DNA of 64,000 nt from an uncultured Gammaproteobacteria bacterium (GTDB taxonomy: Bacteria; Patescibacteriota; Patescibacteriia; UBA9934): positions 31,777 through 95,776 of the forward strand of contig CAYHFQ010000003.1 in the NCBI GenBank assembly GCA_964355955.1, written 5' to 3'. Under the pieces are notes generated by a model. It was not told the origin of the DNA, made no database searches, and saw only the letters and a list, made by a program, of their open reading frames with translations. Shown in pieces: positions 8,416 to 60,742 of this stretch. The stretch's first letter is position 1. The number at the start of each line of letters is the position of its first letter. Position numbers and translations under genes: made by a program.

Positions 8416-8568
8416 GTCGCTCGCAACCGCCGTATCTCCTGTTCCTAGCTCAAGGCCTCAGCCCAGAAACACTTACAGAATGACTCGCTTAACGAAAAGC
8501 AAATGCGCGAGTCAAGTGTTTCTCGGGTCGGCCATCGCGTCGTCACACGAGACACGACAGTCGCTCGC
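8416..8568. repeat. Structured intergenic repeat, copy A, upstream of ftsZ. It has the same outer flanks as copy B at 42728 (GTCGCTCGCAACCGCCGTATCTCCTGTTCCTAGC ... GTCGTCACA(C/G)GAGACACG(A/G)CAGTCGCTCGC) but a different inner nested hairpin.
   Basis: Direct alignment of 8416-8450 and 8540-8568 with 42728-42762 and 42835-42864. The inner part contains a 12-bp stem CCCAGAAACACTT/AAGTGTTTCTCGGG enclosing an 8-bp stem TGACTCGC/GCGAGTCA. Confidence 0.6.
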
Positions 8569-11866: not shown

Positions 11867-11913
11867 GTTCTTCCTCTTGGTATGACGACGACCGGAATGG
11901 CCGACTCGGGAGA

Positions 11914-11942: not shown

Positions 11943-12064
11943 CCGAGCTCAGCTCGGCTGTTGGTTCGCGACCAAAGCTCAGCTTTGGAGAAAACCTAAT
12001 AAAAAGGAAAACTGGCACCCCCCCCGGGAATTCTATCGGGGAGCGCCAGTCGAGGCGAAGAAGG

Positions 12065-12685: not shown

Positions 12686-12748
12686 GAGGTGCCCGATGCT
12701 CTGTGGAGAGCTGTGGGAGGTGGCGCGGCGAGATGGCCGAACGCGACG

Positions 12749-12777
12749 ATTGTGTTAGAGATTGGCCGAGAAGTCAA
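12749..12777 (-). promoter_or_regulatory. Paralog promoter motif. Sense strand: TTGACT-N17-CACAAT.
   Basis: Reverse complement of 12735-12782 is GGCAGAAAGTTGACTTCTCGGCCAATCTCTAACACAATCGTCGCGTTCGGCC. Confidence 0.45.
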
Positions 12778-12867
12778 CTTTCTGCCTGTAAAAAGCAAGA
12801 TCGACACCGCCCGTGAGGGTGAGGTGCCGATCGAGGTCACACGGGAGCGCCGTGTGAGAGTGGCCTG

Positions 12868-13557
12868 CTAGGCCTGGGGGTTGACGCCTTCCCCCGTGTT
12901 GGTGGAGGCCGGCGGGGGCTGGTTGGTGTCGGTGGAGTTGTCCGTGGGCTTGGCGGTCTGCGGCGTGTTGGCGCTGCTCCAGGTGAGGAGGGCGTTGAAG
13001 CGGTCCATGGTCCTCGCGATCGCATCCCGGTTCTTGAAGCCGACGCCCTGGATGACCTCGTCGGGCTCATCGAGGAGCTCGAGCAGCTTGTCGACCAAGC
13101 CGTTTGTACGGTGGTATTCGATGCCCTCCTGGACCCATGCGGTGAGCTCGGCAGGCGTGTGTCCCTGCTCGGCAGGGTCATGCACCTGGCCGCAACGAGG
13201 ACAGGCCTGACCGCTGAGGATCGACTCGATGACGAACTCGAACAAGAAGAAATCACTCACGATGGACGCGGCCGCAGTCATCGGCTCGAGGTTGATGCGC
13301 ACCTCGATGATGCTGTGCCGCGGCTCGGGCTTGGCAGCCATGGCCTTGGACCAGTCGACGTGCGCGAGGCCGATGTGGCCACCGCGGGTTTCGAAGGAGC
13401 CGAACACCTGGTTGTCGTCACCGACCAGGGTGAAGACGGCGTTCCTCGGGAGCGTGATGCCTTCGGACGGCGTCACAGTGCCATCGCTGGCGATGGTGAC
13501 CGTCACCTGGGTGTTATTGTCCTTGCCGTAGAAGGCGCGGAAGGTACGTTTTTCCAA
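12868..13557 (-). CDS. Tandem-paralog family member 5 (229 aa; TTG start). Motifs RNAVFTLVGDDNQVFGSFE, GQACPRCGQVH and RFNALLTWS.
   Basis: ORF translation. AAGGA lies 8 nt upstream of the TTG start. Confidence 0.55.
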   Translation of the reverse strand: MEKRTFRAFYGKDNNTQVTVTIASDGTVTPSEGITLPRNAVFTLVGDDNQVFGSFETRGGHIGLAHVDWSKAMAAKPEPRHSIIEVRINLEPMTAAASIVSDFFLFEFVIESILSGQACPRCGQVHDPAEQGHTPAELTAWVQEGIEYHRTNGLVDKLLELLDEPDEVIQGVGFKNRDAIARTMDRFNALLTWSSANTPQTAKPTDNSTDTNQPPPASTNTGEGVNPQA

Positions 13558-13626
13558 CTTGATCCTTGAATCCCCTAATGGGGCGTATTGAATTTGAGAC
13601 TACCGGAAATGGTCGACTCGGGGAGG

Positions 13627-21800: not shown

Positions 21801-24800
21801 GCACCACAGCCGAGGAAGGCGTTGAGCGGATCCGCCAGCAATGAAGAATCACCAAGAGCGCCACCGAGCAAGTCCGTCCAAGAACCCCAGACGCTGGCAC
21901 CGAGGCCACGAACGAAGGTGCCAGAAGCGAGAGTCGGTACGTCGGAAGTGGCGTAAGTAGAGCTATAAGTGCTGACTTCGCTGCTGATAGTACGGAGATC
22001 GGACAAGCGCTTGACGTCGCGGGTAAGTTTGATTTTGTTGTTGGCACAAGTTTCGCCAGTGGCACAGTCGGCGTCTGAGGTACAAGATTTAGCCGTGTAG
22101 GCGGAACCGTCGGAACAGAGGGCGACATCGCTGACGTTGACGGCAAAGGAGAGGTTAGCGAGGAGCTGATCGTAAATAGCTTTGGTACTTTCGCTGGCAC
22201 CATCGTTGTAGGAGATGACGTAAATGTTGGGGTAGAGGGTGCTGCCACTCTCGTTAACGGCAGCGATGTAGGTGGTGCGGCCGTCTTGCACAGCCTGGAA
22301 ACCGTCCACGGTAGTAACAGATGGGCTACCCGAGAAACCCTGAGCTGTGAACCAAGCAGCTGGACTCAGGTAGTCGGAGTTGGTGACGACGCGGTAACCA
22401 ATGGCGTCGCCGCTGCCGTCGTCCACCTTGAACAAGTATTCTTTGAGAATGTTATCCGTGATGGAGTAGTCGGCGGCATTTTGGACGGTGAGGGCTGCGT
22501 AGTCGTCGGAGGTATCTTGAGCCACACCAGCGTCGCGGCAGTAGAAGTCTGAGAAGTTCATCCAGCCAGCCGAACCAAGCACGGCACCTTCTGCCAGGCT
22601 GGCGTCATCACTCCACGGGAAGGTGGCAGTCTTGATGTCTGGCCAAGTGTTTTCGCAGAGGAAGGCGATGACTTGATTGGTACCAGCCACGGCGGTGCCC
22701 TCAGAAGTACCAAATTGATCGTAATCGATGGTAGCGGTGGCAAGTACGTTAGCGTCACCGTTCTCACCAACGGCGGCGACCACTGCGGTGTCGGCGGTAT
22801 CAGCAGTTGAACCACCTGCAGTAGTGACGATGGTAGCATTCATGTCTTCTGCCCAAGCCCAGTTCCAGGAATAGACGCCGGAAAGAGATTCGATCGGCTC
22901 GCTCGTGGTGCCGTTATGGGTGTAAGCGGTGGCAGTGAAGTCGTGGCTTTCAGTAGCTTGTGAGAAGTAGCTTGGGCTCTCGGTATCACCGTCGGTTACT
23001 GACACACTATCCAAAGTACAAATTTCGGTACCAGTCGTGAAGTCCTGCCAAGCAAAACCGGCTGGGTTGAACATGGCGACGTCGTTGCTTGAGTGGACGC
23101 CTGGACGGGAGGAGTCGGTGACGTCGGCGTCGGTGATTACTTCCAATGTATAGCGAGCGTTGGCGAGCAACGGAATGTCATAGTGCATGACAACTTTGTA
23201 GTTGGTGACGCCCAAAACGTCGACAGCCTCCTGTGAGAACGAAGTGACCGGGACCACACAGTCGTTAGCGGCAGCTTCGGCGGAACGACCGGTGAATATT
23301 TGACGTACAGAAAGCCAGCCACGGGAATACCAGGCCAAGTGCGAGGTAGCGGCGATAGCTAAACGGGTATGGTCGGCCGGACAGATGTGATCTGGAACTG
23401 AACCTAAGTTGAGTTTAGCAAACATGAGAGGTTGAGCAGTGCCGCCTTCTGGTGTCGACAAGAAAGAGGCTAAGTCCATCTCTGTAGTAAAGAGGCCAGA
23501 AATTTCGGCATTGCGACAAACGTTGCGACCAGTTGGGTGCAAGGTGACGGTTGGGCGGGCCATGCAGCAGTTATTGACGCCAATGCCGACCACTTCCGGG
23601 AGTTCACAGTCGCTGTCTTGCAAAGCAGAACAGACGAGGGTGTAGGTGGAAGGGGTGAGTTCGGTTGAAATACCAGACTGAGGTTCGGTAACGTACATGC
23701 TAGCCACGGCTAAGTTGGTGTCGGGGTCGACTTCTTGAGCAGCCTGGAGGCCGATGGCTGCCAATTGCATGTCGTCGACGTTACTGTCGCCAGAGGAGGC
23801 TTCACAACCAGGGTACTCGCCCTGACCGGTGACGCCGTCGCCGCAGAAGGAAGGAATAGTGTAATCGGTAGAAGAACCAAGGTATGACGTGGCAGCTTCG
23901 GTCAAACAAGTAGCCGAACAGCCGTCACCATCCACACTGTTACCGTCGTCGCAAGTTTCGTAGAAAGGAGTAATAGTAAGGTCGCCGCAACTGGCACCGC
24001 CAATATCCGCTGAGCTAACAGAACCTTCACTCAGACATAATGAAGAACAGCCGTCGCCGTTGGCTACGTTGCCGTCGTCGCAGTCCTCGCCACCGATGGT
24101 GGTCTCGAAAGCGCGGTCATGGTTGCCGCAAGTCGCGTTAACTGAGCGCGAACCCTCGTTCAAACAAGTAGCGGAACAACCGTCGCCACTGCGCGTGTTG
24201 CCGTCGTCGCAGTCTTCGCCAGAATGATCGCCTGCTTGGTCTTGGCGACCATTGCCGCAAAGTGGAGCCCAAGTTGGACCACCGTCGCCACCCTCGCGCA
24301 AACAAGAAGCGGAACAACCGTCGCCGTCGTTAGTGTTGCCGTCTTCACATTCTTCACCGTAGCTGTTGCCAGCCCCGTCACCGATTCTACCGTCGCCACA
24401 AATGGCCGCGTACGGTTGGCTGCCGCCTGGGATACAAAGTGAAGTACAGCCAGCGGTAATACCGCTCTTGTCGGTGTCGACCTGAGCATTTGGCAACCAA
24501 CTAGCAACTTCGATCGAGCTGTTACTGCCGTCGTCGGTCCAGTCGGCAAAGCTCCAGTCGAAACCAGTGGTGGCGAGAAGCTGGCCCGAGGTGGAACAAG
24601 CGTCCATTTCACCGTAAGCGGAAACAGTGAAGTTTTGACGCTCACCAACGGTGTTGGCAGTGGCGGCTTCTGGAGAAACAGCTAAGCGATTAACAGCACA
24701 GACGTCAGTCCCCTCCTTAACGCCAAAGGTCCAGGAATAGTCACCGGTGTAATTGGTGCGGGTGAGAGCGACGCCGCTCGGAGTCGTGACGTCACCGGAG

Positions 24801-27800
24801 ATAACGACGCGATAGAATTTGCCTGGGACGAGATAGGTAGTGGCTGGCAAAACGAGATCGACCTGCTGACAATGAGTAGGAGCATCACTGGCGCAATTAG
24901 CGGCCGTGACTGTGTAGTCTGAGAATTCATCGCCGACGCCGACACTGCATAGTTCGTTAGGACAGGTATAGAGTTTAACTGCACCAGGCGCAACTAAGCT
25001 GACGGCGTCCATATCCGTGTTGAAGCTGGCACCGATTAGACCGTTACGGCAAGCCTCATTACAGCTCGGCCAAAAATCTGCGACGTAAGGATCAGTAAAG
25101 TTAATGGTAAGGACAGCGTTACCCTCAACGGCGCTGGCTCGCTCCTCTGCGGTCACGTCCGTGGTACCTTCAGCGTTGGCTTGAACGAGAGTGCAGCTAG
25201 AATTACCACCAGCGCAAACAGGGTCAGTGCTCGAGGTGAGGCCAGCGATACTATCGTCCACCGTCCAGTCGTAAACGTATTGAGTAGCGTCGAGAACTAC
25301 GCAAGCGTCGCTTGGTAAAGCGTTAAAGATATCGGTATCACCCTCCGCGTCGATGGTAGAAGTAGCTGGCGAAACTGAGACGTTGTTGACGGCACAGGCA
25401 GCACCAGTGCTCGAGACAGTGAAATGCCAAGAGGCGTTGGCAGCCATAGCAATGCCGCCAGGTGAGGAGATGGCAGCCGTGCTGACGGTGACTTTGTAGC
25501 TAGTGGCCGTGAGGAAAGGAGTGTTTGGAATCCAGGTGAAGGTAGTTGGTGAGGAGTCAGAAACCGTGAGGACACCGTCGGCCGTGATATCGGTGCCGCC
25601 AGTACAGGCGTCGCTATTACACTTTTCAATCTTCACAGCATCGTCGATCGTGCCGCGGTTCATGAGTTCTGTGAATTCGGCGTAAACTACGGCCTGTGGA
25701 CAGACTTCTGTAGTGAACGTGGAGTTTGGTACGGCACTGATGCGACCGCCGGCGGCTAAGTCACACTCGGTGACGATGGCTGGCGTGGTTGGAATGGTAC
25801 CAGTTGAGAAATACCACTGGTAAGCGGCTGGGCCAGGAGGATTGGTGGTATCAGTAGTTGAGTCACCGTAAGTGAAGTTGAGCGTGTTACTGGCGACACC
25901 TGAGGCCGAAAGAACCTGAACCGGACCAGAAGTGGCGCCACCTGGGGCCGTGACAGTTATCGTGGTGCTGTTCCAGGTACTCGTCAAGGTAGCTGGAATG
26001 CCGCTGAAGAAATTGACTGTACCGGTGGTAGAGCCGAGACTGCCAGTAATGGTGATAGTGTCCCCCGCCGCGCCAGTGTCTGGCGAGATGGAACAGATGC
26101 CAGGGCTAGGTGCGTTTGAGGTGATAGTAAAATCCGTGAGCGCTGAGGTGGCAGAATTTTGAGCGACGAGATAGATAGCGAAGTTGCTACCAGCGACGAC
26201 TGGGTCGCCGTTTTGGTAGTTAGCTGGCACGATGACCGTGACTTGAGTGTCTGACCAGTAATCAGAACAAGCGGCTGGGAAGCTGACGTCGGCCAAGGCC
26301 TTGTAACCGGAGTCTTTATTTTCGAAGAAAACCTGACCAATGTCGGCACCGAAGTTACTGCCTGTGAGCGTAATGTAGTCGCCGATAGCGGCTGAGGATG
26401 GGCTGATGCTGGCGATTGTCGGGACGGTGGTGACGGCGGTGGCCAGGCTGTAGAGAATAGTATTAGAGGCAACACCGTCGACCGTTACGCCAACCGCATA
26501 ACTGCCGTCACGAGCAGCAGGAGCGGTGACGTTGAGCGAAGTGTCGCTCCAACCGCTGTATGAACTAGCGGCGTTAGTACCGAAAGAGACAGTTGAGGTG
26601 CCCTGCGTGTCACCGAAATCGAGACCAGACAGCACGACCGCGTCGGTTGGTGCACCAGAAGTCGGTAAAAGTGAGCAAAGTTTAGGGTGGATGACATCGT
26701 TAACTACGAAGTCGTCGAAAATCTGACCGTAATCGTCGTTGCTTGAATCACTGAGTGGAGTTGTGCCGCCAGTGGTAATGGTAATTGGACCAGTCACAGC
26801 ACCGTCTGGGACCATGACGACTACGCCGGTCGACGACCAGGTAGCACAAGATGGGATAAGCGCAACGACCGTGCCGCCATCCGCCGCAGTGAAAGTTACA
26901 GTTGGCTGAACTGAGCCGAAGCCGATGCCGGCGATAGTAACAAAAGTACCAACCGCACCAGAGAGCGGTGAAATATCCGTAATTTCTGGTAATTCTGTAC
27001 AGATACCGTCGAGGCAGCTAGAGCTTGGGCCGCAGTCGGCGTCCGTGGTACAGGTGCTGCCAGTGCAAGCACCGCAATAATCTAGGCTGGTGCTATCACC
27101 GCCACAGTTGAGACCGGTTTCGCCGTGACTGGTATCAATTTCCGTATTAAAGCACCAAGGTCCACGCGCTGTAACGTGGATAGTGTCGTCGCTCGTGTTG
27201 CCGGCGATATCGGTGACGGTGGTGGCTAGTTTGTAGCTGGTTGAGTTGACCAAAGCTGTGGTATCCCAGTTGGTGGCAATAGTAGTATCGGCAAGATTGT
27301 CACCGCTCGCGCCAACTGAGTCGAACTGAACGTCTTCCGCGCTAAAACTAGCGTCGGCGACCTGGCTGTCGTCCGTGGCGTGGACCTGAACGAGAGCGGA
27401 AGAACCAGATTCAACGCTGCCGCTCGGGATAGTGATAACGGCGGTTGGGTTAGCAACGTCGACTAAGCTGCCAGTGGTAAAGGAAGATGTACAACTAGTG
27501 GTAGTACAAACAAGAGCATTACCGGTGGTACTCTTAATGGCGGTCGTAGTGGTGACGTTGTAAGTGGTGCCGTCTGGAGCGTCGTAGTCAAAGCAGTAAC
27601 GTGTTTCGTTAGGTGTTGGACAAGCAGCGTTAGGACGGAAGCTGGCGGCGTTGCCGCTAACAGTAATGGTACCGTCGACAATAGCGCCACTCGCGGCGTT
27701 GGTGACTACGAGGTTGCCGTTGAGGGTGGCGGCATCGAGATTTTTGGAGAAAGTAACGCGGAGTAAGATATTGCGGATGGCGACTGGGCCGTCAGGCGAG

Positions 27801-28273
27801 AAATCAGTGACTGTAAATGAAGAGGTGCTGCTGCTACCGCCGAATCCCCCACCACCGCTGCCATTGTCGCCAGTATTACCGCCGCCAGCACCCGTGGCGC
27901 TAATAAGAGCGGAGAGGATGAAGCTGGCAATGGCGAATGAAAGTAAGATGATGGCGAGACCGATGACACCGCGGATCAGAATTTTCTTGGCGCGTTCTAA
28001 CTTTTCTTCGTTGCCAGCGGCGGTCATCCAGGTGAAGCCACCGTAAAGAACAATGAGAACCGAGAGGATGCCGAGAACGCCAATGACGACGCGGATAATG
28101 CGAGCGATGATGATTTTTGGATCCTCCGCCGTGAGGCCAGAGGCAGCGCCGACGTTGGCCAAGCTGTCAGTTACCTGTGCTAGCAGGTGTGGGGTGTGCA
28201 AAAATACGCCAGCCGCAATGAGGCCAAGGACAGAAGGGAGAACGTATTTAAGGCGGAACCAACGCATAGCCAA
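18890..28273 (-). CDS. Giant (3127 aa) cell-surface protein. It has an N-terminal signal/two-helix membrane anchor, beta-rich Ig-like regions, many Myxococcus-type cysteine-rich repeats (CGDGxxxxGExCDDGNxxxGDGCSxxC) and a C-terminal von Willebrand factor A domain (DLSNSM MIDAS motif).
   Basis: Single uninterrupted 9.4 kb ORF. Repeats include ICGDGRIGDGAGNSYGEECEDGNTNDGDGCSASC and NCGDGVVDTGEECDDGNTDSGDTC. The C-terminus has VYVVFVTDLSNSMNW...VVLLTDGEAND. Confidence 0.8.
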   Translation of the reverse strand: MAMRWFRLKYVLPSVLGLIAAGVFLHTPHLLAQVTDSLANVGAASGLTAEDPKIIIARIIRVVIGVLGILSVLIVLYGGFTWMTAAGNEEKLERAKKILIRGVIGLAIILLSFAIASFILSALISATGAGGGNTGDNGSGGGGFGGSSSTSSFTVTDFSPDGPVAIRNILLRVTFSKNLDAATLNGNLVVTNAASGAIVDGTITVSGNAASFRPNAACPTPNETRYCFDYDAPDGTTYNVTTTTAIKSTTGNALVCTTTSCTSSFTTGSLVDVANPTAVITIPSGSVESGSSALVQVHATDDSQVADASFSAEDVQFDSVGASGDNLADTTIATNWDTTALVNSTSYKLATTVTDIAGNTSDDTIHVTARGPWCFNTEIDTSHGETGLNCGGDSTSLDYCGACTGSTCTTDADCGPSSSCLDGICTELPEITDISPLSGAVGTFVTIAGIGFGSVQPTVTFTAADGGTVVALIPSCATWSSTGVVVMVPDGAVTGPITITTGGTTPLSDSSNDDYGQIFDDFVVNDVIHPKLCSLLPTSGAPTDAVVLSGLDFGDTQGTSTVSFGTNAASSYSGWSDTSLNVTAPAARDGSYAVGVTVDGVASNTILYSLATAVTTVPTIASISPSSAAIGDYITLTGSNFGADIGQVFFENKDSGYKALADVSFPAACSDYWSDTQVTVIVPANYQNGDPVVAGSNFAIYLVAQNSATSALTDFTITSNAPSPGICSISPDTGAAGDTITITGSLGSTTGTVNFFSGIPATLTSTWNSTTITVTAPGGATSGPVQVLSASGVASNTLNFTYGDSTTDTTNPPGPAAYQWYFSTGTIPTTPAIVTECDLAAGGRISAVPNSTFTTEVCPQAVVYAEFTELMNRGTIDDAVKIEKCNSDACTGGTDITADGVLTVSDSSPTTFTWIPNTPFLTATSYKVTVSTAAISSPGGIAMAANASWHFTVSSTGAACAVNNVSVSPATSTIDAEGDTDIFNALPSDACVVLDATQYVYDWTVDDSIAGLTSSTDPVCAGGNSSCTLVQANAEGTTDVTAEERASAVEGNAVLTINFTDPYVADFWPSCNEACRNGLIGASFNTDMDAVSLVAPGAVKLYTCPNELCSVGVGDEFSDYTVTAANCASDAPTHCQQVDLVLPATTYLVPGKFYRVVISGDVTTPSGVALTRTNYTGDYSWTFGVKEGTDVCAVNRLAVSPEAATANTVGERQNFTVSAYGEMDACSTSGQLLATTGFDWSFADWTDDGSNSSIEVASWLPNAQVDTDKSGITAGCTSLCIPGGSQPYAAICGDGRIGDGAGNSYGEECEDGNTNDGDGCSASCLREGGDGGPTWAPLCGNGRQDQAGDHSGEDCDDGNTRSGDGCSATCLNEGSRSVNATCGNHDRAFETTIGGEDCDDGNVANGDGCSSLCLSEGSVSSADIGGASCGDLTITPFYETCDDGNSVDGDGCSATCLTEAATSYLGSSTDYTIPSFCGDGVTGQGEYPGCEASSGDSNVDDMQLAAIGLQAAQEVDPDTNLAVASMYVTEPQSGISTELTPSTYTLVCSALQDSDCELPEVVGIGVNNCCMARPTVTLHPTGRNVCRNAEISGLFTTEMDLASFLSTPEGGTAQPLMFAKLNLGSVPDHICPADHTRLAIAATSHLAWYSRGWLSVRQIFTGRSAEAAANDCVVPVTSFSQEAVDVLGVTNYKVVMHYDIPLLANARYTLEVITDADVTDSSRPGVHSSNDVAMFNPAGFAWQDFTTGTEICTLDSVSVTDGDTESPSYFSQATESHDFTATAYTHNGTTSEPIESLSGVYSWNWAWAEDMNATIVTTAGGSTADTADTAVVAAVGENGDANVLATATIDYDQFGTSEGTAVAGTNQVIAFLCENTWPDIKTATFPWSDDASLAEGAVLGSAGWMNFSDFYCRDAGVAQDTSDDYAALTVQNAADYSITDNILKEYLFKVDDGSGDAIGYRVVTNSDYLSPAAWFTAQGFSGSPSVTTVDGFQAVQDGRTTYIAAVNESGSTLYPNIYVISYNDGASESTKAIYDQLLANLSFAVNVSDVALCSDGSAYTAKSCTSDADCATGETCANNKIKLTRDVKRLSDLRTISSEVSTYSSTYATSDVPTLASGTFVRGLGASVWGSWTDLLGGALGDSSLLADPLNAFLGCGADPLASYDSATCVNQANGQYICPAGSHVYHYKAGGSASYTLYADLEYAAAGWYYDYDTATDDAVTYQVSSPLSTAEGFTTAVFCDGATVYGSTGNCGDGVVNGGEACEIGQRGGDTATCDTDLTVDSDLNGVVDDDANGIQSQVCDSTCSAFIADSSATCVVSSCGDGVTDTSLGETCDDGSLNGRYGYCGSSCSLTVDAFYCGDGSLAGGEVCDCGSTTTTYARPTGGVDYVCGGTTSASYVNGDYEFDPNNTCAWDCQGPASYCGDGVIDSGEVCDGDLDSYEGTICNDRSGTMAGQACETDSQCEAGTSSSSRTSLRPKCGLTAGGEESPAFGACAVSTVCQFSDDATLVGQACTTNDDCGAGGTCSNNTYQTYRTRVCDDDGASGGTCNWTDAATGYQGITCKALNNCGDGVVDTGEECDDGNTDSGDTCTNQCKTNVCGDGYLELETEQCDEGVNNGAGCTSAYESTCTACSVSCKYTSLSGEFCGDGVANGDEYCDAYDLPNSYVPAIRLVSDSSPIQVWDDATSTGTSYTLVGSNSCTYNGQRFSVDLNSDGTANENEVCQTVGQCNGGDSTDTARGLGVACLSDADCSSNDCQFPVCASSCNSTCPETYLSDAMLMTDNQPGAASSSSVDLYSYTDSTTSDLPNAATITFPACRLGATLTADVSLDNVTAPDVYVVFVTDLSNSMNWSFDGRVDGSSARLNAAKEGLTNSLSALYSVDNMHVGLVTYRGGCLSTDTSCTEVTEVTTRAFADSTAEAEYAGYIDLYDADGGTPTDLGLDAAKTLLDAQSSVTNARKIVVLLTDGEANDPAATTDAADIIKGVDENGDDIPDYELYTIALTTSSSFIRTVAGWSSNDPAIYTVDRTQPNNLTSIDYAYHGSSSSAITDAYNSIVASITQPTFTLVTSGGTTTSGSVMEGTGVAIPWPEGFICDQSAEQTLPLRVTFAGEGQVNISNVKFNYCSP

Positions 28274-42727: not shown

Positions 42728-42864
42728 GTCGCTCGCAACCGCCGTATCTCCTGTTCCTAGCTGCGCCTCGTCAACCGCACGAGCTCACTGACCTCGTCTG
42801 ACTCGGGAGCTCGACGCAGGGCCGAGGCTAGTGTCGTCACAGGAGACACGGCAGTCGCTCGCTC
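42728..42864. repeat. Structured intergenic repeat, copy B, beginning 1 nt after the der stop. Outer flanks are as in copy A. The inner ~75-nt Y motif is GCCTCG-TCAACCGCAC-GAGCTC-...ACCTCGTCTGACTCGG...-GAGCTCG-CGCAGGGC-CGAGGC.
   Basis: Aligned to copies C and D. It has nested stems: outer CTCCTGT/ACAGGAG, middle GCCTCG/CGAGGC, inner CGAGCTC/GAGCTCG. Confidence 0.65.
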
Positions 42865-42936
42865 TTAAAGGCCTTCGTCTTGCTAAAAAGTTTAAACTAC
42901 CGACTACCAACTACTATCTACCAACTTTCATACTCT

Positions 42937-43500
42937 ATGGCAATCATGATCGTGGGACTCGGTAATCCAGGTGTAGCGTATAAGAAGACCCGCCACAATG
43001 CGGGTTTTTTGGCGCTTGATAAGTTAGCTGATGAGTGGGGCGGGAGCTGGCGCGTGAATAACACAGCAAAAGCCGAGGTAGCGGAGGTGATTGTCGGCGA
43101 GATGAAGATAGTACTAGTGAAGCCACAAACTTTCATGAATAATTCTGGCCTCGCAGTGGCGTCGCTCATGCATCGCTATAAGATTACGATTGAACGAGTG
43201 TGGGTGGTTTACGACGACGCGGCGATTGCGAATGACCAGGTGCGAGTACGCCGTGGTGGCAGTGCTGGCGGACATAATGGGCTGAAGTCGATCATCGCGC
43301 ACAACGGCGATCCGTTCGCTCGTTTCCGTATCGGACTCGGCAATCCACCAGAACGAGTACCACTCGAAGAGTTTGTATTGCAGAATTTTAAGGCGGAGGA
43401 AATGACGCTGCTCGAGCATAAATTAGACGTGGTGATTGAACTCATCAACGAAGCCAGAGTGACTGGCGTCCAAGAAAAAACCGTAACTATCGCCACATGA
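42937..43500 (+). CDS. pth: Peptidyl-tRNA hydrolase.
   Basis: MAIMIVGLGNPG...HNAGF...GHNGL. The track ORF starts earlier (42880); ATG 42937 matches the canonical Pth N-terminus. Confidence 0.9.
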   Translation: MAIMIVGLGNPGVAYKKTRHNAGFLALDKLADEWGGSWRVNNTAKAEVAEVIVGEMKIVLVKPQTFMNNSGLAVASLMHRYKITIERVWVVYDDAAIANDQVRVRRGGSAGGHNGLKSIIAHNGDPFARFRIGLGNPPERVPLEEFVLQNFKAEEMTLLEHKLDVVIELINEARVTGVQEKTVTIAT

Positions 43501-44585
43501 TCTCCCCCTACCGCTTAGCTCTCACGCATTTTGACGACCTCACCATCGGCCCAGTCCGTCATGCGAGCTTGCTTGAAGTTTTGGGGACGGATGAGAATAT
43601 TTGGCGGGCTAATATCGATGAGTTGCAGAGTGGCGGCCTGACGCACGGCATGGCGAAAAAGTTTATTGACTGGCGCGCCACGCAAAACCCGCAAGCCTTG
43701 CTCGATGACACATTGAAACGCGGAATAAGCCTGGTAACGCTCGACGACCCAGAGTACCCGCAACTGCTCCGCGCCATTCACGACGCACCGTACGTCCTCT
43801 ACTACCGCGGTACGTTGCCACCGGCCGATGCGCTGTTGGTCGGCGTGGTGGGGTCGCGTCAGGCTACACCGTACGGCTTGAAAGTGGCTGCTGAGTTGTC
43901 CGAGAAGCTGGCGCGCCATCACTTGGTAATCGTCAGTGGTTTAGCCTGGGGTATTGATGAGGCGGCGCACAGAGCAACGGTTAACGTAAATGGTAAGACG
44001 ATTGCGGTGCTTGGCTGTGGGCTTGATGCTAATGATTCTTATAGGAAAATAGAATTAGCAGAGGAGATAGTAAGCAAGGGTGGAGCAATAATCAGCGAGT
44101 ATCCGCCGGAGATGCCTTCGTACACTCATCATTTCCCTATCCGTAACCGCATAATTTCTGGCATGAGCAAGGGAACACTCGTGGTTGAAGCGGCAGAAAA
44201 ATCCGGCTCGTTAATAACAGCCCGAGCGGCCTTAGGAGAAAATCGTGAAGTATTTGCCGTGCCTGGTTCGATTCACTCCCCTACTTCCGTTGGTACTAAT
44301 CGTTTATGTCGCGATGGTGCCCACGTAGTGACTTCTGCCGAAGACATTCTTAATGTGCTCGGTGTAACGCCAAGAGAAACTGCCACCGAAGCTCCAGTAA
44401 CCATGATACCGCCAGCTACGCCAGAAGCTAGAGCGATTCTCGAGCTCTTAAACCACGAACCAAAACATATTGATGATCTTGCTATAGCAGTCGCGCTGCC
44501 AAGCCACATCGTCGGCGGAACGTTGACGATTATGGAGATTGAGGGTTACGCTCGGCATGTTGGTGGTGGAAATTATACGAGATAA
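43497..44585 (+). CDS. dprA: DNA processing protein DprA (Smf).
   Basis: Rossmann-like DprA core (VGVVGSRQATPYGL...VIVSGLAWGIDEAAHRA). Its start overlaps the pth stop (ATGA). Confidence 0.85.
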   Translation: MISPYRLALTHFDDLTIGPVRHASLLEVLGTDENIWRANIDELQSGGLTHGMAKKFIDWRATQNPQALLDDTLKRGISLVTLDDPEYPQLLRAIHDAPYVLYYRGTLPPADALLVGVVGSRQATPYGLKVAAELSEKLARHHLVIVSGLAWGIDEAAHRATVNVNGKTIAVLGCGLDANDSYRKIELAEEIVSKGGAIISEYPPEMPSYTHHFPIRNRIISGMSKGTLVVEAAEKSGSLITARAALGENREVFAVPGSIHSPTSVGTNRLCRDGAHVVTSAEDILNVLGVTPRETATEAPVTMIPPATPEARAILELLNHEPKHIDDLAIAVALPSHIVGGTLTIMEIEGYARHVGGGNYTR

Positions 44586-44589
44586 CTGC

Positions 44590-44855
44590 AAGTGAGTAAT
44601 GCCTGACGATGAGACGAGCTGAAGTCGGCCCTGCACCAGCGCCCGAGTCAGACGAGGTGAGACGGATGGTGCGGTTGACGACTTCGGTGAGGCGAAGCGT
44701 TAGACATTACTCACTTGTCGATTCAGATGATACGGACAGCACTTCGTCTCACTCATGCCGTCAACCGCAGAATCCCCGACCATACCTCGTCTGACTCGGA
44801 GGGATTCCGCAGGGCCGGCATTCGTTCGCCTCATTGCTATCTGTATCATCTGAAT
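44590..44855. repeat. Structured repeat, copy C. It holds two Y-motif units in opposite orientation (inverted 44610-44698, direct 44748-44830). Each is enclosed by its own 13-16-bp outer inverted repeat: CAAGTGAGTAATG/CATTACTCACTTG and GATTCAGATGATAC(G)GACAG/CTGTATCATCTGAATC. The element ends 8 nt before the folC ATG.
   Basis: Reverse complement of 44610-44698 aligns base-for-base with copy D's Y motif. Stems co-vary: GAAGTCG/CGACTTC and ATGCCG/CGGCAT replace GCCTCG/CGAGGC; GAATCCC/GGGATTC replaces CGAGCTC/GAGCTCG. Confidence 0.65.
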
Positions 44856-44863
44856 CTGTGAAT

Positions 44864-46120
44864 ATGAAAAATTACAAAGAAGCCGTACAGCGCCTGATAG
44901 GTCTCAGTAATTTGGAGACGTCGTGGCGCGGGAGTCAGGAGAGTTTGCAGGAGTCGCTCAAACGGACCAAGCAGTTACTGGCCAAGCTCGAGTACCCCGA
45001 GCGTAGATTAAAATTTGTGCATGTGACGGGCACGAGCGGTAAAGGTAGTGTGACCAACTTGATTCACGAGATGCTCTTGGCGGATGGTCGGGCTGTGGCG
45101 AGTTATACGTCGCCGCACACGACGACGCTGCTCGAAAGATTTAGAGTGAATGAGAAGTTGATTGAACCGAAGCTACTCATACAAGCCATCGAGCTCGTTA
45201 TCGCGGCGTATTCGATTCATCTAGAAGAAAGCAAGCAGACGCTCAGCTACTTCGAACTCGCAACCGTCGTCGCACTGGTGGCCTTCGTGTTGGCCAAGGT
45301 TGAGTGGTGTGTGCTCGAGGTGGGACTCGGTGGACGCTGGGATTCGACAAATGTCATTCCGAAGAAAGAGGTGGCGGTGATTACCAACGTCGACCTGGAT
45401 CATACGGATATTTTAGGGAATAGTGTAGAGGAGATTGCGCAGGAAAAAGTAGGAATTATTACGGGGCGCTGTGCGGTTATTGCCGGCGTCGTCCAAGCGA
45501 ATTTGCGGGAGTTGATAAGTGATGTGGCGAGCGATAAGAAGGCCAGCGTGAGATTTATTGAGGCTCCGAATGGTGATCATCGCTTACATAACGCGTTGAT
45601 TGCGACAGCAGCGGCGCAAGCGGTGGGCGTGAAAATCGAAGTGATTGAGAAGGCGCTAGCGAAGAGTAAGGGACTGCCCTGCCGGTTTGAGGTGATGAGT
45701 CAGAAGCCGCTCGTAATTGTCGACGGGGCGCACAATGAGGCCAAGATGAACGGAACGGTGCAGCTACTGAAGTCGATGAAACGAGGAAAAGTGCATGTCA
45801 TCTTTGGTTGTAAGCACAGTAAAGATGCGGGGGCGATGCTCAAGGCTTTAGCACCGCTGGCTGACGTCATCCATACCACGCGCTACCAACATGGCTATGG
45901 CGCACCAGAGAATCCAGCAGTGCTCGCTAAGCTGATTACGAAGGGTAAGCGAGGAAAGACGTGGCTCTTTGCCGACGAGGCGCTGCAGCAGGTACTCGAC
46001 GAAATGAAACCAGAAGATACACTTTTAATTACAGGATCGCTCTATTTGGCTGGAGAATTAAGGACACATTGGGTGAGTGAAGAATCGATTGTTAGAAGGC
46101 AATCTAGCCAAGTTAAATAA
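44864..46120 (+). CDS. folC: Folylpolyglutamate synthase/dihydrofolate synthase (Mur ligase family).
   Basis: ATP-binding VTGTSGKGS, DHTDILG and the Mur ligase C-domain. The track start is TTG 44834; ATG 44864 is preferred. Confidence 0.8.
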   Translation: MKNYKEAVQRLIGLSNLETSWRGSQESLQESLKRTKQLLAKLEYPERRLKFVHVTGTSGKGSVTNLIHEMLLADGRAVASYTSPHTTTLLERFRVNEKLIEPKLLIQAIELVIAAYSIHLEESKQTLSYFELATVVALVAFVLAKVEWCVLEVGLGGRWDSTNVIPKKEVAVITNVDLDHTDILGNSVEEIAQEKVGIITGRCAVIAGVVQANLRELISDVASDKKASVRFIEAPNGDHRLHNALIATAAAQAVGVKIEVIEKALAKSKGLPCRFEVMSQKPLVIVDGAHNEAKMNGTVQLLKSMKRGKVHVIFGCKHSKDAGAMLKALAPLADVIHTTRYQHGYGAPENPAVLAKLITKGKRGKTWLFADEALQQVLDEMKPEDTLLITGSLYLAGELRTHWVSEESIVRRQSSQVK

Positions 46121-46250
46121 CTCGCAACCGCCAATCCCCTATTCCTAGCGGCGCCTCGTCAACCGCACCAGCCGTCTCACCTCGTATGACTCGGGCGCTG
46201 GCGCAGGGCCGAGGCTGGCGTCGTCATAGGAGATATGGCAATTGCTCGCT
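46121..46250. repeat. Structured repeat, copy D, immediately after the folC stop. Flanks are diverged (CTCGCAACCGCCAATCCCCTATTCCTAGC ... GTCGTCATAGGAGATATGGCAATTGCTCGCT) and the Y motif is conserved.
   Basis: Outer stem CCCCTAT/ATAGGAG versus CTCCTGT/ACAGGAG in copy B, i.e. a G-C to A-T compensatory change. Inner stem CCAGC/GCTGG. Confidence 0.65.
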
Positions 46251-46278
46251 ACTTGGCCTTACAAGCTGCGTAAGAAAA

Positions 46279-48672: not shown

Positions 48673-50142
48673 ATGCAGATGCCTTCGTTTGATGATTTAA
48701 AGGTGGTACTCGACGCGAGATACAGCGAGTTTGATTTGATTTTGCTGCAAACGGCGTATGAATATGCCAAGCTAGCACATGAGGGGCAAACAAGGAGTAC
48801 GGGTGAGCCGTATTTTAATCACGTTTTTCAGACGGCCGTTAAGCTGGCTAAGTTGCGTTTGCCGAGTGAAGTAATTGCAGCTGGGTTGTTGCATGATGTA
48901 CCGGAGGATACGGAGAGAACGCTCGAGGATGTAGAAAAAGAATTCGGGGCAGATATTGCCGGCATGGTGGCGAGTTGTACCAAGCTCGGTAAAGTTAAGT
49001 ACCGCGGTGAGGAGCGTTACATTGAAAACCTGCGCAAGATGTTCGTGGCGATGGCGGAGGACGTGCGCGTCATCTTCATTAAGTTTGCGGACCGCATGCA
49101 CAACATGGAGACGCTGTATGCCCGGCCGGAGCATAAGCGTTTGCGGATTGCCAAGGAGGTAATGGAGATTTACGCCCCGATCGCTAATAGGCTAGGCATG
49201 GCGGAATATCGTGGTCAATTTGAGGACCATGCTTTTAAGTACCTCTTCCCTCGCGACTACACTTGGACCCAGCATTTACTCGAGGAGCGTGTGCGTAAAT
49301 TTGGGCCGGCCATGAACCGCGCCATTCCGACGGTGGAAAAAGAGTTGAAGGATCATAACGTCAACTATGTCGACATCCACGGCCGGATGAAACATTGTTA
49401 TAGCCTATATAAGAAGCTCAAAAAATACGGTAATGACATCGACAAAGTGTACGACATTGTGGCCTTGCGGATAATTGTGCCCAGTGTGGCCGACTGTTAT
49501 GCCGCGCTTGGCATTCTACATAGCCTGTACACGCCGCTCCCCGGTCGTATTAAGGATTATATCGCGCAACCTAAACCAAACGGTTATAGCTCACTCCACA
49601 CCACCGTGTTTGACGACCAAGGGGCAATTGTCGAGTTTCAAATACGCACGCAGCAGATGCACGAGGAGGACGAGTACGGTATTGCCGCGCACTGGCGGTA
49701 TAAAGAAGGGTCGGCCAAGAACAAGCACGTCACCTGGATGGAAGAGTTCGCTAAAATTCAAAAAGAAATTAGCGGCGATACTTTCATGGACCATTTGGAC
49801 AACATGAAGCTCGACATGTTCCGCGACCGCATCTTCGTGTTCACGCCCCGGGGCGACGTGATTGACTTACCGGAGGATTCGACGCCTGTTGATTTTGCTT
49901 ACGCTGTCCACACCGACATCGGTAATAAAACGACGATGGCGCAAGTGAACCGGGTCGTCGCGCCGCTCGACACTCCGCTCAAAAGTGGCGATGTAGTGGA
50001 AATTGTGACTGACAAAAATCGTAAGCTGCCGAACGAGGATTGGCTGCGTTTTGTGAAGACGCACCAGGCGCGGGAGAAAATAAAAGACGCGCTCCGAGCC
50101 ACGAAGCGGTCGTTTATTTCGAAGATGTTGGGGCGGAGTTAA
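48673..50142 (+). CDS. rel: Bifunctional (p)ppGpp synthetase/hydrolase of the short RelA/SpoT type (HD + synthetase + TGS domains; no ACT domain).
   Basis: HD motif LHDVPEDT, the synthetase-domain sequence ...RIKDYIAQPKPNGYSSLHTTV, and TGS (FVFTPRGDVIDLP). The track start is GTG 48622, which lies inside the topA terminator hairpin; ATG 48673 is preferred. Confidence 0.85.
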   Translation: MQMPSFDDLKVVLDARYSEFDLILLQTAYEYAKLAHEGQTRSTGEPYFNHVFQTAVKLAKLRLPSEVIAAGLLHDVPEDTERTLEDVEKEFGADIAGMVASCTKLGKVKYRGEERYIENLRKMFVAMAEDVRVIFIKFADRMHNMETLYARPEHKRLRIAKEVMEIYAPIANRLGMAEYRGQFEDHAFKYLFPRDYTWTQHLLEERVRKFGPAMNRAIPTVEKELKDHNVNYVDIHGRMKHCYSLYKKLKKYGNDIDKVYDIVALRIIVPSVADCYAALGILHSLYTPLPGRIKDYIAQPKPNGYSSLHTTVFDDQGAIVEFQIRTQQMHEEDEYGIAAHWRYKEGSAKNKHVTWMEEFAKIQKEISGDTFMDHLDNMKLDMFRDRIFVFTPRGDVIDLPEDSTPVDFAYAVHTDIGNKTTMAQVNRVVAPLDTPLKSGDVVEIVTDKNRKLPNEDWLRFVKTHQAREKIKDALRATKRSFISKMLGRS

Positions 50143-50159
50143 AAACAGAAACGCACCCA

Positions 50160-50220
50160 GGGGCGATGCGCTCTGCCGGAGTGAATCCGGAGGCGTCATC
50201 GCACACTGGGTGCGAGAGGT
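50160..50220 (-). terminator. Long imperfect palindrome (CACCCAGGGGCGATG...CATCGCACACTGGGTG). On the minus strand it is followed by GTTTCTGTTTTT.
   Basis: Lies between the convergent rel gene and the GC-rich minus-strand gene. Confidence 0.35.
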
Positions 50221-50703
50221 TCAGTCGACGTTGATGTCGCGCTCGTCCACGTCACCAGTCCAACGATGCAACTCGGTTCGCCAGTCATGATCCTGGTCGA
50301 ATTGACGGTTGCAAGCGGAGCAGCGACAGTGCCGGATCAACCAGTCGCGGTCGTGAACGTGGGCCGCGAAGTCGGTGGGCAACTGCTCGAGTTCCTCGAG
50401 CAAGGTGGTGTAGGCGCTGTCGAACAGACAACGAGCCTCGGAGGTAAGCGCGGTCAGAATGCTCATGCTGATCCGCATGAGCCTGCCCTCGTCGGTCTTC
50501 AACTTGAGGCACGACTTGTAGGTGAGGAGCGCGACACGGTAGCAGTTGCTCCAGTAGACGTCGAGCCCGGCGTCGAAGGCGGCGTCGTAGCTCTCCAACC
50601 GTCCGGCTGGAGCCTCAGCGAGCGTCTTCAGCACGTCCTTGGCGTACGGCGTCTGAGGACAGCAGCCGAACCGGGAGTAGATGAGATGAGCGGGAACAGT
50701 CAT
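50221..50703 (-). CDS. GC-rich Cys/His-rich hypothetical protein. The likely start is the internal ATG (MTVPAHLIYSRFGCCPQ...HCRCSACNRQFDQDHDW).
   Basis: The track ORF is 50221..50769; an internal Met follows a Pro-rich spurious-looking N-terminus. No family recognised. Confidence 0.4.
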   Translation of the reverse strand: MTVPAHLIYSRFGCCPQTPYAKDVLKTLAEAPAGRLESYDAAFDAGLDVYWSNCYRVALLTYKSCLKLKTDEGRLMRISMSILTALTSEARCLFDSAYTTLLEELEQLPTDFAAHVHDRDWLIRHCRCSACNRQFDQDHDWRTELHRWTGDVDERDINVD

Positions 50704-50819
50704 GGTGGACTCCTGTAGAGAGGTGGGAGGTGGCGCTGGCGGGTTGCCAACGACCTGAAATGATAACAAAAAAGAGGCCTTTTGTCAAGGTCTCTTGCCT
50801 GTTTTGTGGCTAACCCTAG

Positions 50820-51746
50820 CTAAGTTAAATGTTCGATGAGGGCCTTCAAGTCGTCCTTGGAGTAGAAGTGAATGATCACCTGGCCGCTGGCTTGGGTGGT
50901 CATTTTGATTTCTACTTTGGTGCCGATTTTCTCGCGGAGTTCGCGCTCGATGGCTTCTAGGTTAGGGTCACGGAAAAGGTGGGGCTGACGGACGTGGGCC
51001 CTAACGGTGCGTTCGGCTTCACGGATGCTGACGCCGCCTTTCAGCATGCGTTCAAAGAGGTCGCGTTGACGGGCGACGTTGCCTTCTTGCAACAAGGTGC
51101 GGCCGGCGGATTTGCTGATTTTACCTTCTTTGATGGCGGTTAGAATATCATCCGGCAAATCGAGCAAGCGGAGAGCATTCGTAATAAAGGGACGACTCTT
51201 GCCGACGCGTTCCGCCATCTCCTCTTGACTCAAACCAAAGTCCTCCATGAGGGCTTTGTAGGCCAAGGCTTCTTCGACCGGATTCAAGTCCGAGCGCTGC
51301 ACGTTCTCGATGATGGCGAGTTCGAGCTTTTCGCGATCAGTAGCTTCGCGGACGACGACTGGCACGGTTGCCAGGCCGGCAATAGCGGAGGCACGCAAAC
51401 GGCGTTCACCAGCGATGAGTTCGTACTGGCCGTTACCCTTGTCCGTCACTGTGAGAGGCTGCAAAATGCCGTGCTCACGAATGCTGTTAGCCAAGTCGCT
51501 CAGTTCTTCGGGCGTGAATTCGCGGCGAGGCTGACGTGGGTTCGGGACGATTTGTGAAGGAGAAACGTGAATGAGGCGCAGGCCCTCGTCGACCACGCTT
51601 TCTAAAACATTTGGTTGTTCAACACGGGACTCGATAATTGGAGTTTCAGTGGCGACGGTTGGTGACTGAGTTGGCGCGTGAGCTGGGGTCATTTGAGGAA
51701 TCAACGAGCCGAGTCCCCTGCCTAGTCCACCGAATTGTTTGGCCAT
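50820..51746 (-). CDS. parB: Chromosome partitioning protein ParB/Spo0J.
   Basis: ParB box GERRLRAS and the HTH region. Confidence 0.9.
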   Translation of the reverse strand: MAKQFGGLGRGLGSLIPQMTPAHAPTQSPTVATETPIIESRVEQPNVLESVVDEGLRLIHVSPSQIVPNPRQPRREFTPEELSDLANSIREHGILQPLTVTDKGNGQYELIAGERRLRASAIAGLATVPVVVREATDREKLELAIIENVQRSDLNPVEEALAYKALMEDFGLSQEEMAERVGKSRPFITNALRLLDLPDDILTAIKEGKISKSAGRTLLQEGNVARQRDLFERMLKGGVSIREAERTVRAHVRQPHLFRDPNLEAIERELREKIGTKVEIKMTTQASGQVIIHFYSKDDLKALIEHLT

Positions 51747-60667: not shown

Positions 60668-60696
60668 GACCTGATTGTAACACGAACTGCTAAAAC

Positions 60697-60742
60697 TGGG
60701 GATAAGTGGTCTACCTCAAAGATATACCTTTGAGGTAGACCA
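60697..60742. repeat. Hairpin family copy 3: GGGGATAAG-TGGTCTACCTCAAAG-atatacc-TTTGAGGTAGACCA followed by AATTTTTA.
   Basis: Shares GATAAGTGGTCTAC...GTAGACCA with copies 1 and 2. The inner stem is again different but complementary (CTCAAA/TTTGAG). The loop contains TATAC. Confidence 0.65.

Follow-up and report, generated by a model that had tools for sequence, protein, structure and literature searches.

Do the nested hairpins that follow der, dprA, and folC in this 64,000-nucleotide stretch of DNA (the window) act as RNA, or are they mobile DNA elements? A sequence-only reading had described a family of such repeats and offered both interpretations. The structured repeats in the window are confirmed as a real family: there are four units with a common 57-nt core (B, C1, C2, and D) as well as a copy A, with the coordinates and sequences originally described. 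The central 15-mer CCTCGTNTGACTCGG occurs exactly four times in the 64 kb, and a search of the window with the family covariance model matches only the four units, plus a weak, shell-only match at copy A. Throughout, "top strand" is the strand as written in the sequence-only reading, and "bottom strand" is its complement.

One unit is a single long hairpin of ~130 nt. From the outside inward it consists of a copy-specific outer stem of 13–22 bp, an asymmetric internal loop that is conserved, a 6-bp stem that varies, and the conserved 57-nt core. Within the core are a helix in which two wobble positions are fixed, a further variable stem, and an apical loop of 20 nt that is likewise conserved. 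Unit ends read TCGCAAC...GT(C/T)GCTC, with the conserved flank (G)TCGCTCGC at either side; the flanks are often GCTCGC direct repeats, and CTCGC is present at both junctions in units with an S1 shell. With a 3' tail module of 25–60 nt, which it often carries, the inserted unit exceeds the 110–150 nt first proposed. The outer stems are copy-specific: there are 15 types of outer arm, with a mean complementarity score of 11.7 between a copy's own two arms versus 5.2 between arms of different types. The core is found within at least nine unrelated shells, and the modules (shell, cargo, tail, and palindrome) combine differently among copies.

Unit B (42728..42864, plus strand; covariance model 94 bits) has an S1 shell and begins immediately 3' of the der TAG stop. 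Its GTCGCTCGC direct repeat (42728-42736) is followed by the 5' arm of the outer stem (42737-42754), the conserved internal loop TCCTAGCTGC, stem 1 (GCCTCG, 42765-42770), the core (42768-42824, plus strand), stem 1', a second internal loop TAGTGTCGTC, the 3' arm of the outer stem (42839-42855), and the CGCTCGCTC direct repeat. The tail module CTTAAAGGCCTTCGTCTTGCTAAAAAG and then an (A)ACTACC-repeat module (42864..42935, plus strand) reach to the pth start; this composite also occurs 3' of S1 units elsewhere (L004, L010, L016, L017, L012, L001, and L022). Unit B has orthologues in L004 and L026, while L022 carries the same shell with a different interior. Unit C1 (44589..44717, minus strand; 87 bits; core 44625-44681, minus strand) starts 3 nt past the dprA stop and has an outer stem, CAAGTGAGTAATG.../...CATTACTCACTTG, found only at this locus. 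Unit C2 (44720..44856, plus strand; 76 bits) has an outer stem of 17–20 bp, GATTCAGATGATAC.../...GTATCATCTGAATC, and a variant core (about 44757-44820, plus strand) with stem 2 GAATCCC/GGGATTC. It adjoins folC as claimed, although the distance to the folC ATG (44864) is 7 nt and not 8 nt. Unit D with its tail ACTTGGCCTTACAAGCTGCGTAAG spans 46121..46274 (plus strand; 112 bits), of which the S1 shell plus core occupy 46121-46250 (plus strand) and the core 46156-46212 (plus strand); the topA -35 box TTGACA begins at 46279, 3' of this block. Copy A (8416..8568, plus strand; 17 bits, shell only) does combine the S1 shell of B with a different interior, an A-type cargo, TCAAGGCCTCAGCCCAGAAAC...GTTTCTCGGGTCGGCC. 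On either side of it are ftsZ and an ORF, both on the minus strand. Copy A is upstream of ftsZ, 143 nt away from its start, and the closest stop is at a distance of ~95 nt, so the proposed placement of every copy beside a stop codon holds for B, C1, and D (0–3 nt after the stop) but not for copy A.

Beyond the window, ~25 copies are spread over three related Candidatus Uhrbacteria genomes. Uhrbacteria LJ_bin-3226 has ~25 copies on 17 contigs, roughly one per 40 kb for a genome that we take to be ~1 Mb; additional copies are found in UBA11707-like genomes, L026, and L028, and sister genomes contain few or zero. All of the ~30 family copies are intergenic, and many are recent relatives of each other, so copy counts are not counts of independent events. 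No copies were found in the JGI metagenome and viral collections. At the gathering score, Rfam matched four tRNAs and nothing else in the whole window, and with E values up to 10 no match between 42600 and 46400 overlapped the elements; no match to an Rfam family (riboswitch, ribozyme, sRNA, or leader) was obtained for them. Nor did we find a repeat family of this type in the literature on Patescibacteria/CPR. The best reading is that these repeats form a superfamily of modular nested-palindrome intergenic repeats restricted to a narrow clade of Candidatus Uhrbacteria (Patescibacteria).

The nested stems covary, as the sequence-only reading had it. Across 26 copies from four genomes, 99.0% of the cells in stem 1 and stem 2 are paired, as compared to 32–52% in slid controls; two-sided changes are seen at 9 of 21 pairs, and none of 500 shuffles reached the observed covariation score. 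Orthologues also covary, CCGC/GC-A-GG becoming CCGT/AC-A-GG in L004. The window holds three independent core variants, not four: the cores of C1 and D are 95% identical, and one position is broken in stem 2 of C1. Compensatory changes also occur in the DNA hairpins of REPINs (PMC3116915), so the inference that compensatory change means RNA is unsafe, and textbook covariation in three nested stems does not on its own indicate a functional RNA.

The folds are more stable than those of shuffled sequence (z from -2.1 to -6.5), and the better folder is not the strand as written but the bottom strand, by 10–29 kcal/mol in 23 of 25 copies; the genome background trends in the opposite direction. This advantage arises via G·U/G·T positions. 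With DNA parameters, the bottom strand has z of -2.4 to -6.5, versus -0.5 to -0.9 for the top strand in S1 copies. Isolated mismatches in the arms follow the same strand, with 64 that are wobble pairs on the bottom strand, 12 that are wobble pairs on the top strand, and nine transversions (41, 11, and nine, respectively, outside the core). Two G·U pairs in the core helix are invariant on the bottom strand.

Element direction follows the replication strand, as read from GC skew, and does not follow gene direction. In every one of the 19 records, namely 17 contigs of LJ_bin, the window, and L026, the top strand lies on the G-rich strand; these records hold 23 single core copies (two-sided p ~4e-6). 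The element's own top strand is C-rich (mean skew -0.135). GC3 skew is 0.3–0.6 for genes of either strand, with no gene-strand bias, and between co-directional genes 10 copies have the same orientation as the genes and seven the opposite. Tails lie 12:1 on the G-rich strand. Opposite polarity is seen in one shell copy (L019 7770-7985) and in one unit of each C pair, which always holds one unit in each orientation. The G-rich strand is usually the leading strand; by this rule, the bottom strand would lie on the leading-strand template.

Comparison of orthologous spacers, filled and empty, at dprA-folC and folC-topA shows that the units come and go. The genes around the units (der, pth, dprA, folC, and topA) keep their synteny in seven genomes, and the spacers that receive units are otherwise 0–40 nt long. 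Between folC and topA, L026, L027, and L028 have no element: the whole unit D block is missing and the site reads ...GTAA|AAAATTGACA. In the window, L004, and L022 this spacer is occupied by three different elements. Between dprA and folC, it is L027 and L030 that have no unit. At the empty folC-topA sites CTCGC is missing, and the sequence there instead suggests an A-rich duplication of 8–9 nt; among the copies examined, flanks did not show a consistent target-site duplication, nor was an empty "tail" site found, so these sites define no insertion chemistry.

Interiors are exchanged as well. Between der and pth, orthologous sites have one and the same S1 shell, filled with the core in one genome and with the A-type cargo in another (L022); the A cargo recurs in L019 within a different shell, and L019 also has a third cargo type. 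Palindromes have been acquired within the core (24 nt; L006, L010, and L015) and within the apical loop (15 nt; L018), and L017 is chimeric, with mismatched arms. C1 and C2 have each been inverted in place between their arms, C1 relative to its orthologues in L004, L008/L022, and L028, and C2 relative to orthologues whose interior is inverted. Of the two interpretations first offered, filled and empty sites, swapped interiors, the many shells, and palindromes in loops favour a non-autonomous element that lands in hairpin loops, while the RNA reading in its cis-acting form is weakened by gene-independent orientation and by the absence of a promoter, a U-tract terminator, and an Rfam match. Orthologous copies are also conserved: identity is 0.94–0.96 for C2, 0.86 for B, and 0.79–0.82 for C1, whereas four-fold degenerate sites in the flanking genes dprA and folC reach 0.60. 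Since silent sites evolve far faster than orthologous copies do, some copies, at least, appear to have been co-opted for a host function.

In sum, units have been inserted, flipped, given new interiors, interrupted by palindromes, and oriented in line with GC skew, and the bottom strand forms a near-perfect hairpin. With somewhat better than even confidence, we interpret them as a partly domesticated palindromic mosaic, REP/BIME-like, whose action or spread, or both, would take place as single-stranded DNA coupled to replication. Its mode would be comparable to those of IS200/IS605 elements, REP-RAYT systems, and integron attC sites; as a precedent, Y1 HUH enzymes work on the lagging-strand template (PMC6006769). 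Alternatively, copies may survive only if they are oriented such that the strongly folding strand does not end up on the lagging-strand template. Modules could be shuffled through recombination or gene conversion between shells or by a putative transposase, and for the inner modules transposition and gene conversion between shell copies are candidate routes. Several observations count against this interpretation. No mobilising enzyme was found in the available sequence: a Pfam search of ten window ORFs gave no transposase, and phmmer with an IS608 TnpA query found no match in six-frame ORFs of ~270 kb, which is a weak test. The lack of a consistent target-site duplication and of an empty tail site also weighs against it, as does strong purifying selection over whole orthologous units, which is unexpected for selfish repeats. 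The two invariant core G·U positions are of a kind commoner in RNA than in DNA, and, contrary to the IS608 rule, the strand that folds better is placed on the inferred leading-strand template. A more specific version, which we consider improbable, is a so far undescribed CPR system of replication-coupled single-stranded DNA, with either mobilisation into hairpin loops by an unrecognised enzyme, which would build "Russian-doll" palindromes, or a domesticated fork-polar signal (for example, a hairpin-presented priming or loading site), whose orientation would be under genome-wide selection.

The strand-specific wobble positions, including the two invariant core pairs, would also be expected of small structured RNAs, acting in trans, transcribed from the bottom strand, whose function would lie in the RNA fold, with DNA mobility secondary. 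The bottom strand folds far better with RNA parameters, the loops are conserved, a Shine-Dalgarno-like sequence, ACGAGGUGAGA, is exposed in the apical loop, and slow evolution and covariation between orthologues (as in L004) also fit. However, no sigma-70-like promoter upstream or terminator downstream was found on the bottom strand, no Rfam family matched, and every single copy would be transcribed head-on to replication, with no obvious rationale. Replacement of interiors by unrelated sequences at orthologous sites, flipping of C1/C2 without loss, and the same covariation in REPIN hairpins (PMC3116915) also argue against these RNAs, and we regard them as rather unlikely. A cis-acting role in mRNA is unlikely too; as a stabiliser, terminator, or translation brake near stops in 3' UTRs or intercistronic spacers, as for REP sequences, we give it very little probability. 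Such an element would account for the position of B, C1, and D just after stops and of C2 just before the folC ATG, where C2 is 94–96% conserved, and because each C pair holds one unit per orientation, the mRNA always has one well-folding copy. Spacers in these genomes are so short, though, that insertions necessarily abut a stop or start codon; orientation is random relative to genes and fixed relative to skew; copy A, like several LJ_bin copies, is located 5' of a gene or between divergent genes; hairpins have no U tract 3' of them; and close relatives have the same sites without elements. An intrinsic (Rho-independent) terminator is not supported: no unit has a terminator-like site on either strand, and the flanks are GCTCGCT/CTTAAAGG and not T runs.

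The host may instead read the elements as a chromosomal signal, on DNA that is single-stranded at the replication fork. Such a signal could be a loading or priming site presented by a hairpin on the lagging-strand template, or a protein-binding site with fork polarity, and mobility would serve only for dispersal. Strict replication polarity, purifying selection on orthologous copies, the spacing in LJ_bin-3226, and conserved C-rich loops, with GACTC and CTA motifs recurring on the inferred lagging-strand template, are consistent with a signal of this kind. That template, however, is the strand that folds poorly as DNA, sister genomes have few or no copies, and polarity is reversed in one shell copy of L019 and in one unit per C pair; moreover, we know of no protein that binds these elements. 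Altogether we judge such a signal to be improbable.

Of known systems, REP/BIME, REPIN, and ERIC elements are similar in kind. Like REP, BIME, and REPIN sequences, the elements are multi-copy extragenic imperfect palindromes near gene ends with a mosaic, modular build, compensatory changes in hairpin arms (PMC3116915), presumed processing as replication-tied single-stranded DNA (PMC6006769), and partial takeover for host functions. Unlike them, they are not units of 20–40 nt with a 5' GT[AG]G but ~130-nt units with three nested stems and a conserved 57-nt core, in which GTAG/GTGG is absent, the conserved flank is GTCGCTCGC, and the outer arms differ wholly between copies. REP/RAYT systems are described in Proteobacteria, while the host here is a CPR bacterium, and no RAYT was found with the TnpA query in ~270 kb. 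IS200/IS605 elements and PATEs share the reliance on hairpins and appear to share the lack of a clear target-site duplication and strict orientation relative to replication (here GC skew). CTCGC at both junctions would be expected for insertion 3' of a specific target, but the empty folC-topA sites lack it. Those elements have separate left-end and right-end hairpins in place of one long hairpin, IS608 has the opposite strand preference, and the available sequence yielded no Y1 transposase. Integron attC sites are likewise imperfect palindromes (60–140 nt) that start right after a stop codon and fold strand-specifically, and in sedentary chromosomal integrons the folding (bottom) strand is on the leading-strand template (PMC5371416), as here. 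They are set apart by the unit ends, by orientation that is random relative to genes and independent of the upstream ORF, and by neighbours that are syntenic housekeeping genes and not cassettes; there is no integrase, RYYYAAC/GTTRRRY boxes are absent, and the conserved centre and variable arms are the reverse of attC. A MITE derived from a DDE transposon is at odds with the 15 unrelated arm types and the lack of a consistent flank duplication. The ERIC/IRU elements of enterobacteria are intergenic imperfect palindromes of ~127 bp, with longer variants formed by insertions at fixed internal sites and with presence or absence at orthologous sites. The elements described here resemble them in these respects, but only in architecture: the hosts belong to different phyla, we know of no sequence relationship, and to our knowledge replication-linked orientation has not been reported for ERIC.

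Insertions of ~130–230 nt under constraint are unexpected in genomes of, presumably, ~1 Mb with almost no intergenic space. The combination of strict replication polarity, strand-specific wobble, and nested module exchange makes a clean natural system for studying the fate of single-stranded hairpins at replication forks: their tolerance, copying, and shuffling. On a practical level, the replication strand of a metagenome contig can be read from the elements. Assembly breaks may be another of their effects; L026 and L027 both start inside an element.

The repeat family is real and well supported, and it is best filed with the REP/BIME/REPIN kind of element, here in a lineage of the CPR, although it has neither the small size nor the 5' GT[AG]G that define REPs. 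Its unusual properties are a Russian-doll modularity and a polarity that strictly follows replication, combined with wobble pairing specific to one strand.

When the window is re-examined, the sequence of the repeats matches the account given in the sequence-only reading. A core of 57 nt, TCGTCAACCGCA...ACCTCGTMTGACTCGG...GCAGGGCCGA, is common to four units: B in the der-pth spacer (42728–42864, plus strand), C1 (44589–44717, core on the minus strand) and C2 (44720–44856, plus strand) as a pair in the dprA-folC spacer, and D in the folC-topA spacer (46121–46250, plus strand). Copy A (8416–8568) has the outer sequences of B around a different interior. The window has four exact occurrences of the central 15-mer of the core and no more, and every unit there folds well. 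All four units proposed from the sequence are thus present, but the cores of C1 and D are 95% identical, so the window provides three independent core variants rather than four.

Among species-representative genomes, the core was found in about 20 places in Candidatus Uhrbacteria LJ_bin-3226, spread over 17 contigs, and once in Uhrbacteria UBA11707; one additional hit, L007, is a chance match and was rejected as a family member. A covariance-model search, the check that the sequence-only reading had proposed, used the strand that folds better and recovered 28 copies in the window and the loci from the genome scan, and more in loci retrieved afterwards. Two scans of JGI metagenome collections gave no true match, only two chance matches (L020 and L021) that the covariance model threw out, and one scan of JGI viral collections yielded nothing; the family is therefore narrow. 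Rfam finds only four tRNAs at gathering score in the whole window, and the elements match none of its families at gathering score or up to E = 10. Two metagenome contigs, L026 and L027, start (position 1) within an element of this family at the der-pth site, which suggests that the repeats break short-read assemblies.

The nested, compensating stems described from the sequence are correct and now have statistical support. Across 26 copies, stems 1 and 2 are 99% paired and 9 of their 21 pairs change on both sides; none of 500 shuffles reached the observed covariation, and slid controls drop to 32–52% paired. The outer stems comprise 15 mutually unrelated arm types, and an arm complements its own partner (mean 11.7) far better than arms from other types (5.2). 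DNA hairpins of such a kind are expected to show compensatory change (PMC3116915). We also considered whether the outer arms are inverted duplications of the local target, but the empty sites have no similarity to the arms. An arm overlaps the end of a coding region in L006 only.

The comparison of orthologous spacers draws on neighbourhoods from five further genomes, found through FolC homologues, and shows both filled and empty sites at folC-topA and dprA-folC. The folC-topA spacer lacks the element in L026, L027, and L028, where GTAA is directly followed by AAAATTGACA, and in the window it holds a 154-nt block (46121–46274) consisting of the hairpin plus its 3' module, or tail. At the same point, LJ_bin-3226 and a UBA11707-like genome carry two other structured elements, which are unrelated. 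The dprA-folC spacer is empty in L027 and L030 and contains the C pair in L028. In L026, which lacks the pair, this spacer is 22 nt long and consists mostly of the apical-loop motif of the core, ACCTCGTCTGACTC (14 nt, 1754–1767), which may be what a deletion left behind or may be a free-standing site. A similar sequence, ACTTCGTCTCACTC, forms the 5' internal loop of C2.

Module exchange is seen at the der-pth site, where the S1 shell (the outer stem and flanks shared by B, D, and A) surrounds the core in the window, L004, and L026 and an A-type interior in L022. Three copies (L006 1129, L010 2135, and L015 6223) carry the 24-nt perfect palindrome CCACGTCGGTCGCGACCGACGTGG as an insertion at a single core position, and it also occurs alone (L009 1323, L012 4495, L017 632, and L027 3). 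Its variants change symmetrically (..GTCAGTCGCGACTGAC.. and ..GTCGTTCGCGAACGAC..), and in two contexts it lies between 4-nt direct repeats, CAGG or CAAG. In L018, the apical loop of one copy holds another small palindrome, and a copy in L017 is chimeric, its left and right arms being unpaired and of different types. Relative to three other genomes, the interiors of both C1 and C2 are inverted in the window between unchanged arms; this is not an inversion of the whole pair, as the order of the units is the same and each interior is flipped between its own arms. Gain, loss, flipping, and module exchange characterise a mosaic DNA element that undergoes recombination. Insertion polymorphism, cargo exchange, nested palindromes, and inversions support in substance the second of the two original readings, a small mobile element that lands in hairpin loops. 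The modules would either have transposed or been swapped between shells by gene conversion.

Ahead of pth and other genes, the stretch that separates the element tail from the start codon contains runs of (A)ACTACC or CTACCCC repeats (window 42891–42935; also in L001, L004, L010, L012, L016, L017, L022, L027, and L028). At the der-pth site of L028, such a run and its own inverted copy form a long hairpin.

Orientation was scored against local GC skew for 23 single core copies, which come from 19 independent records. The strand on which the element was first written, here the top strand, coincides with the G-rich strand in each of the 17 LJ_bin-3226 contigs and also in the window and L026. Copies between two co-directional genes are found both in gene orientation (10) and opposite to it (7). 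In the window and every locus, genes of both strands have a very strong GC3 skew (0.3–0.6), and the G-rich and C-rich strands hold even shares of the coding sequence (121 kb vs 120 kb), so the skew is not a by-product of gene orientation. Other modules have the same polarity (shell 17:2, tail 12:1), the clear exception being one shell copy in L019 that holds a third cargo type. Within this skew, the element forms an "anti-skew island": its own top strand is C-rich (mean skew -0.135). We infer that orientation follows replication, not genes, with the G-rich strand assigned as lagging-strand template from the general rule.

A short hairpin repeat, CTCCCCCATAGCTGGGGGAG, adjoins a C-rich stretch (window 14141, 17091, 18847, 30283, and 60268; L002 2758) and reads on the other strand as a hairpin and AGGAGG immediately ahead of a gene start. 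The genes that follow the six copies are all on the C-rich strand; the orientation of this family tracks the downstream gene and is hence uninformative as a polarity control.

The complement of the top strand folds 10–29 kcal/mol better in 23 of 25 copies, against a background of 150-nt window tiles in which the G-rich strand has the folding advantage, by a mean of 4.9 kcal/mol. With DNA parameters, folding of the complement is significant (z -2.4 to -6.5) and that of the top strand in S1-type copies is not (z -0.5 to -0.9). In a two-arm alignment that weights both kinds of transition equally, isolated arm mismatches, counted as copies and not as independent events, read A·C on the top strand and G·U/G·T on the complement in 64 cases, form wobbles on the top strand instead in 12, and are transversions in 9; with the core excluded, these classes number 41, 11, and 9. 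The core helix has two invariant wobble positions. Mutation bias does not account for this asymmetry: transitions toward a G-rich top strand would put the wobbles on the top strand, the opposite of what is observed, and the background tiles likewise favour the G-rich strand. As mutation pressure predicts the opposite pattern, the asymmetry points to selection or strand-specific repair acting on the single-stranded form.

When the window is compared with L004 or L022, dprA and folC show an identity of 0.60 at four-fold degenerate sites, and that of the orthologous elements is 0.94–0.96 (C2), 0.86 (B), and 0.79–0.82 (C1). Other copies are unlikely to have conserved C2 by homogenisation, since its subfamily is without a paralogue in the data, and hairpin-templated correction would keep pairing, not sequence. 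Judged by these identities, at least some units appear to be under purifying selection, which is unusual in a purely selfish repeat and suggests that at least some have been domesticated.

Several known kinds of element were rejected. Intrinsic terminators are ruled out; attC sites do not fit, given that R boxes are absent, orientation is random with respect to ORFs, and the neighbours are syntenic housekeeping genes; and a classical MITE is at odds with arms that are not conserved among copies and with the lack of a consistent duplication. Low-power searches for a mobilizing enzyme found no Y1 transposase in the ORFs of ~270 kb, using an IS608 TnpA sequence as query, and no transposase by Pfam in ten unannotated ORFs of the window. 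The element would be handled as single-stranded DNA, in a manner linked to replication. Its polarity might be set at insertion, as in IS200/IS605, where polarity is written at that step (PMC6006769), or might be kept because the element would be stable only with its strongly folding strand off the lagging-strand template; the same stability logic has been proposed for attC bottom strands of chromosomal integrons (PMC5371416). Alternatively, the complementary strand may give rise to a trans-acting RNA; scanning and inspection by eye of the conserved tail found no acceptable -35/-10 pair from which a bottom-strand RNA could start. The family may also be a fork-polar host signal, and C2 specifically may have a local influence on folC expression.

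The window has a second repeat family, a near-perfect palindrome of ~56 nt with a consensus DnaA box at both ends (TGTGGATAA...TTATCCACA) and variable inner arms that keep their complementarity (window 2142–2197, 4140–4196, and 60692–60742; L005 4137–4183, L006 6022–6071, L012 5427–5484, and L014 245–293). A block of ~680 nt (50141–50821), missing from the otherwise collinear UBA11707 contig L008, carries a 182-aa minus-strand ORF (50221–50769) with no Pfam match. The G+C-rich region at 8600–13600 contains several paralogous ORFs of unknown function, five of which have no Pfam match, and two repeat families (8749, 11280, and 12099; 10321, 11908, 12743, and 13621). A 3127-aa ORF on the minus strand (18890–28273) has numerous internal repeats in which the motif GCCGTCGCCGCAG is abundant, with repeat families at 20293–24384.
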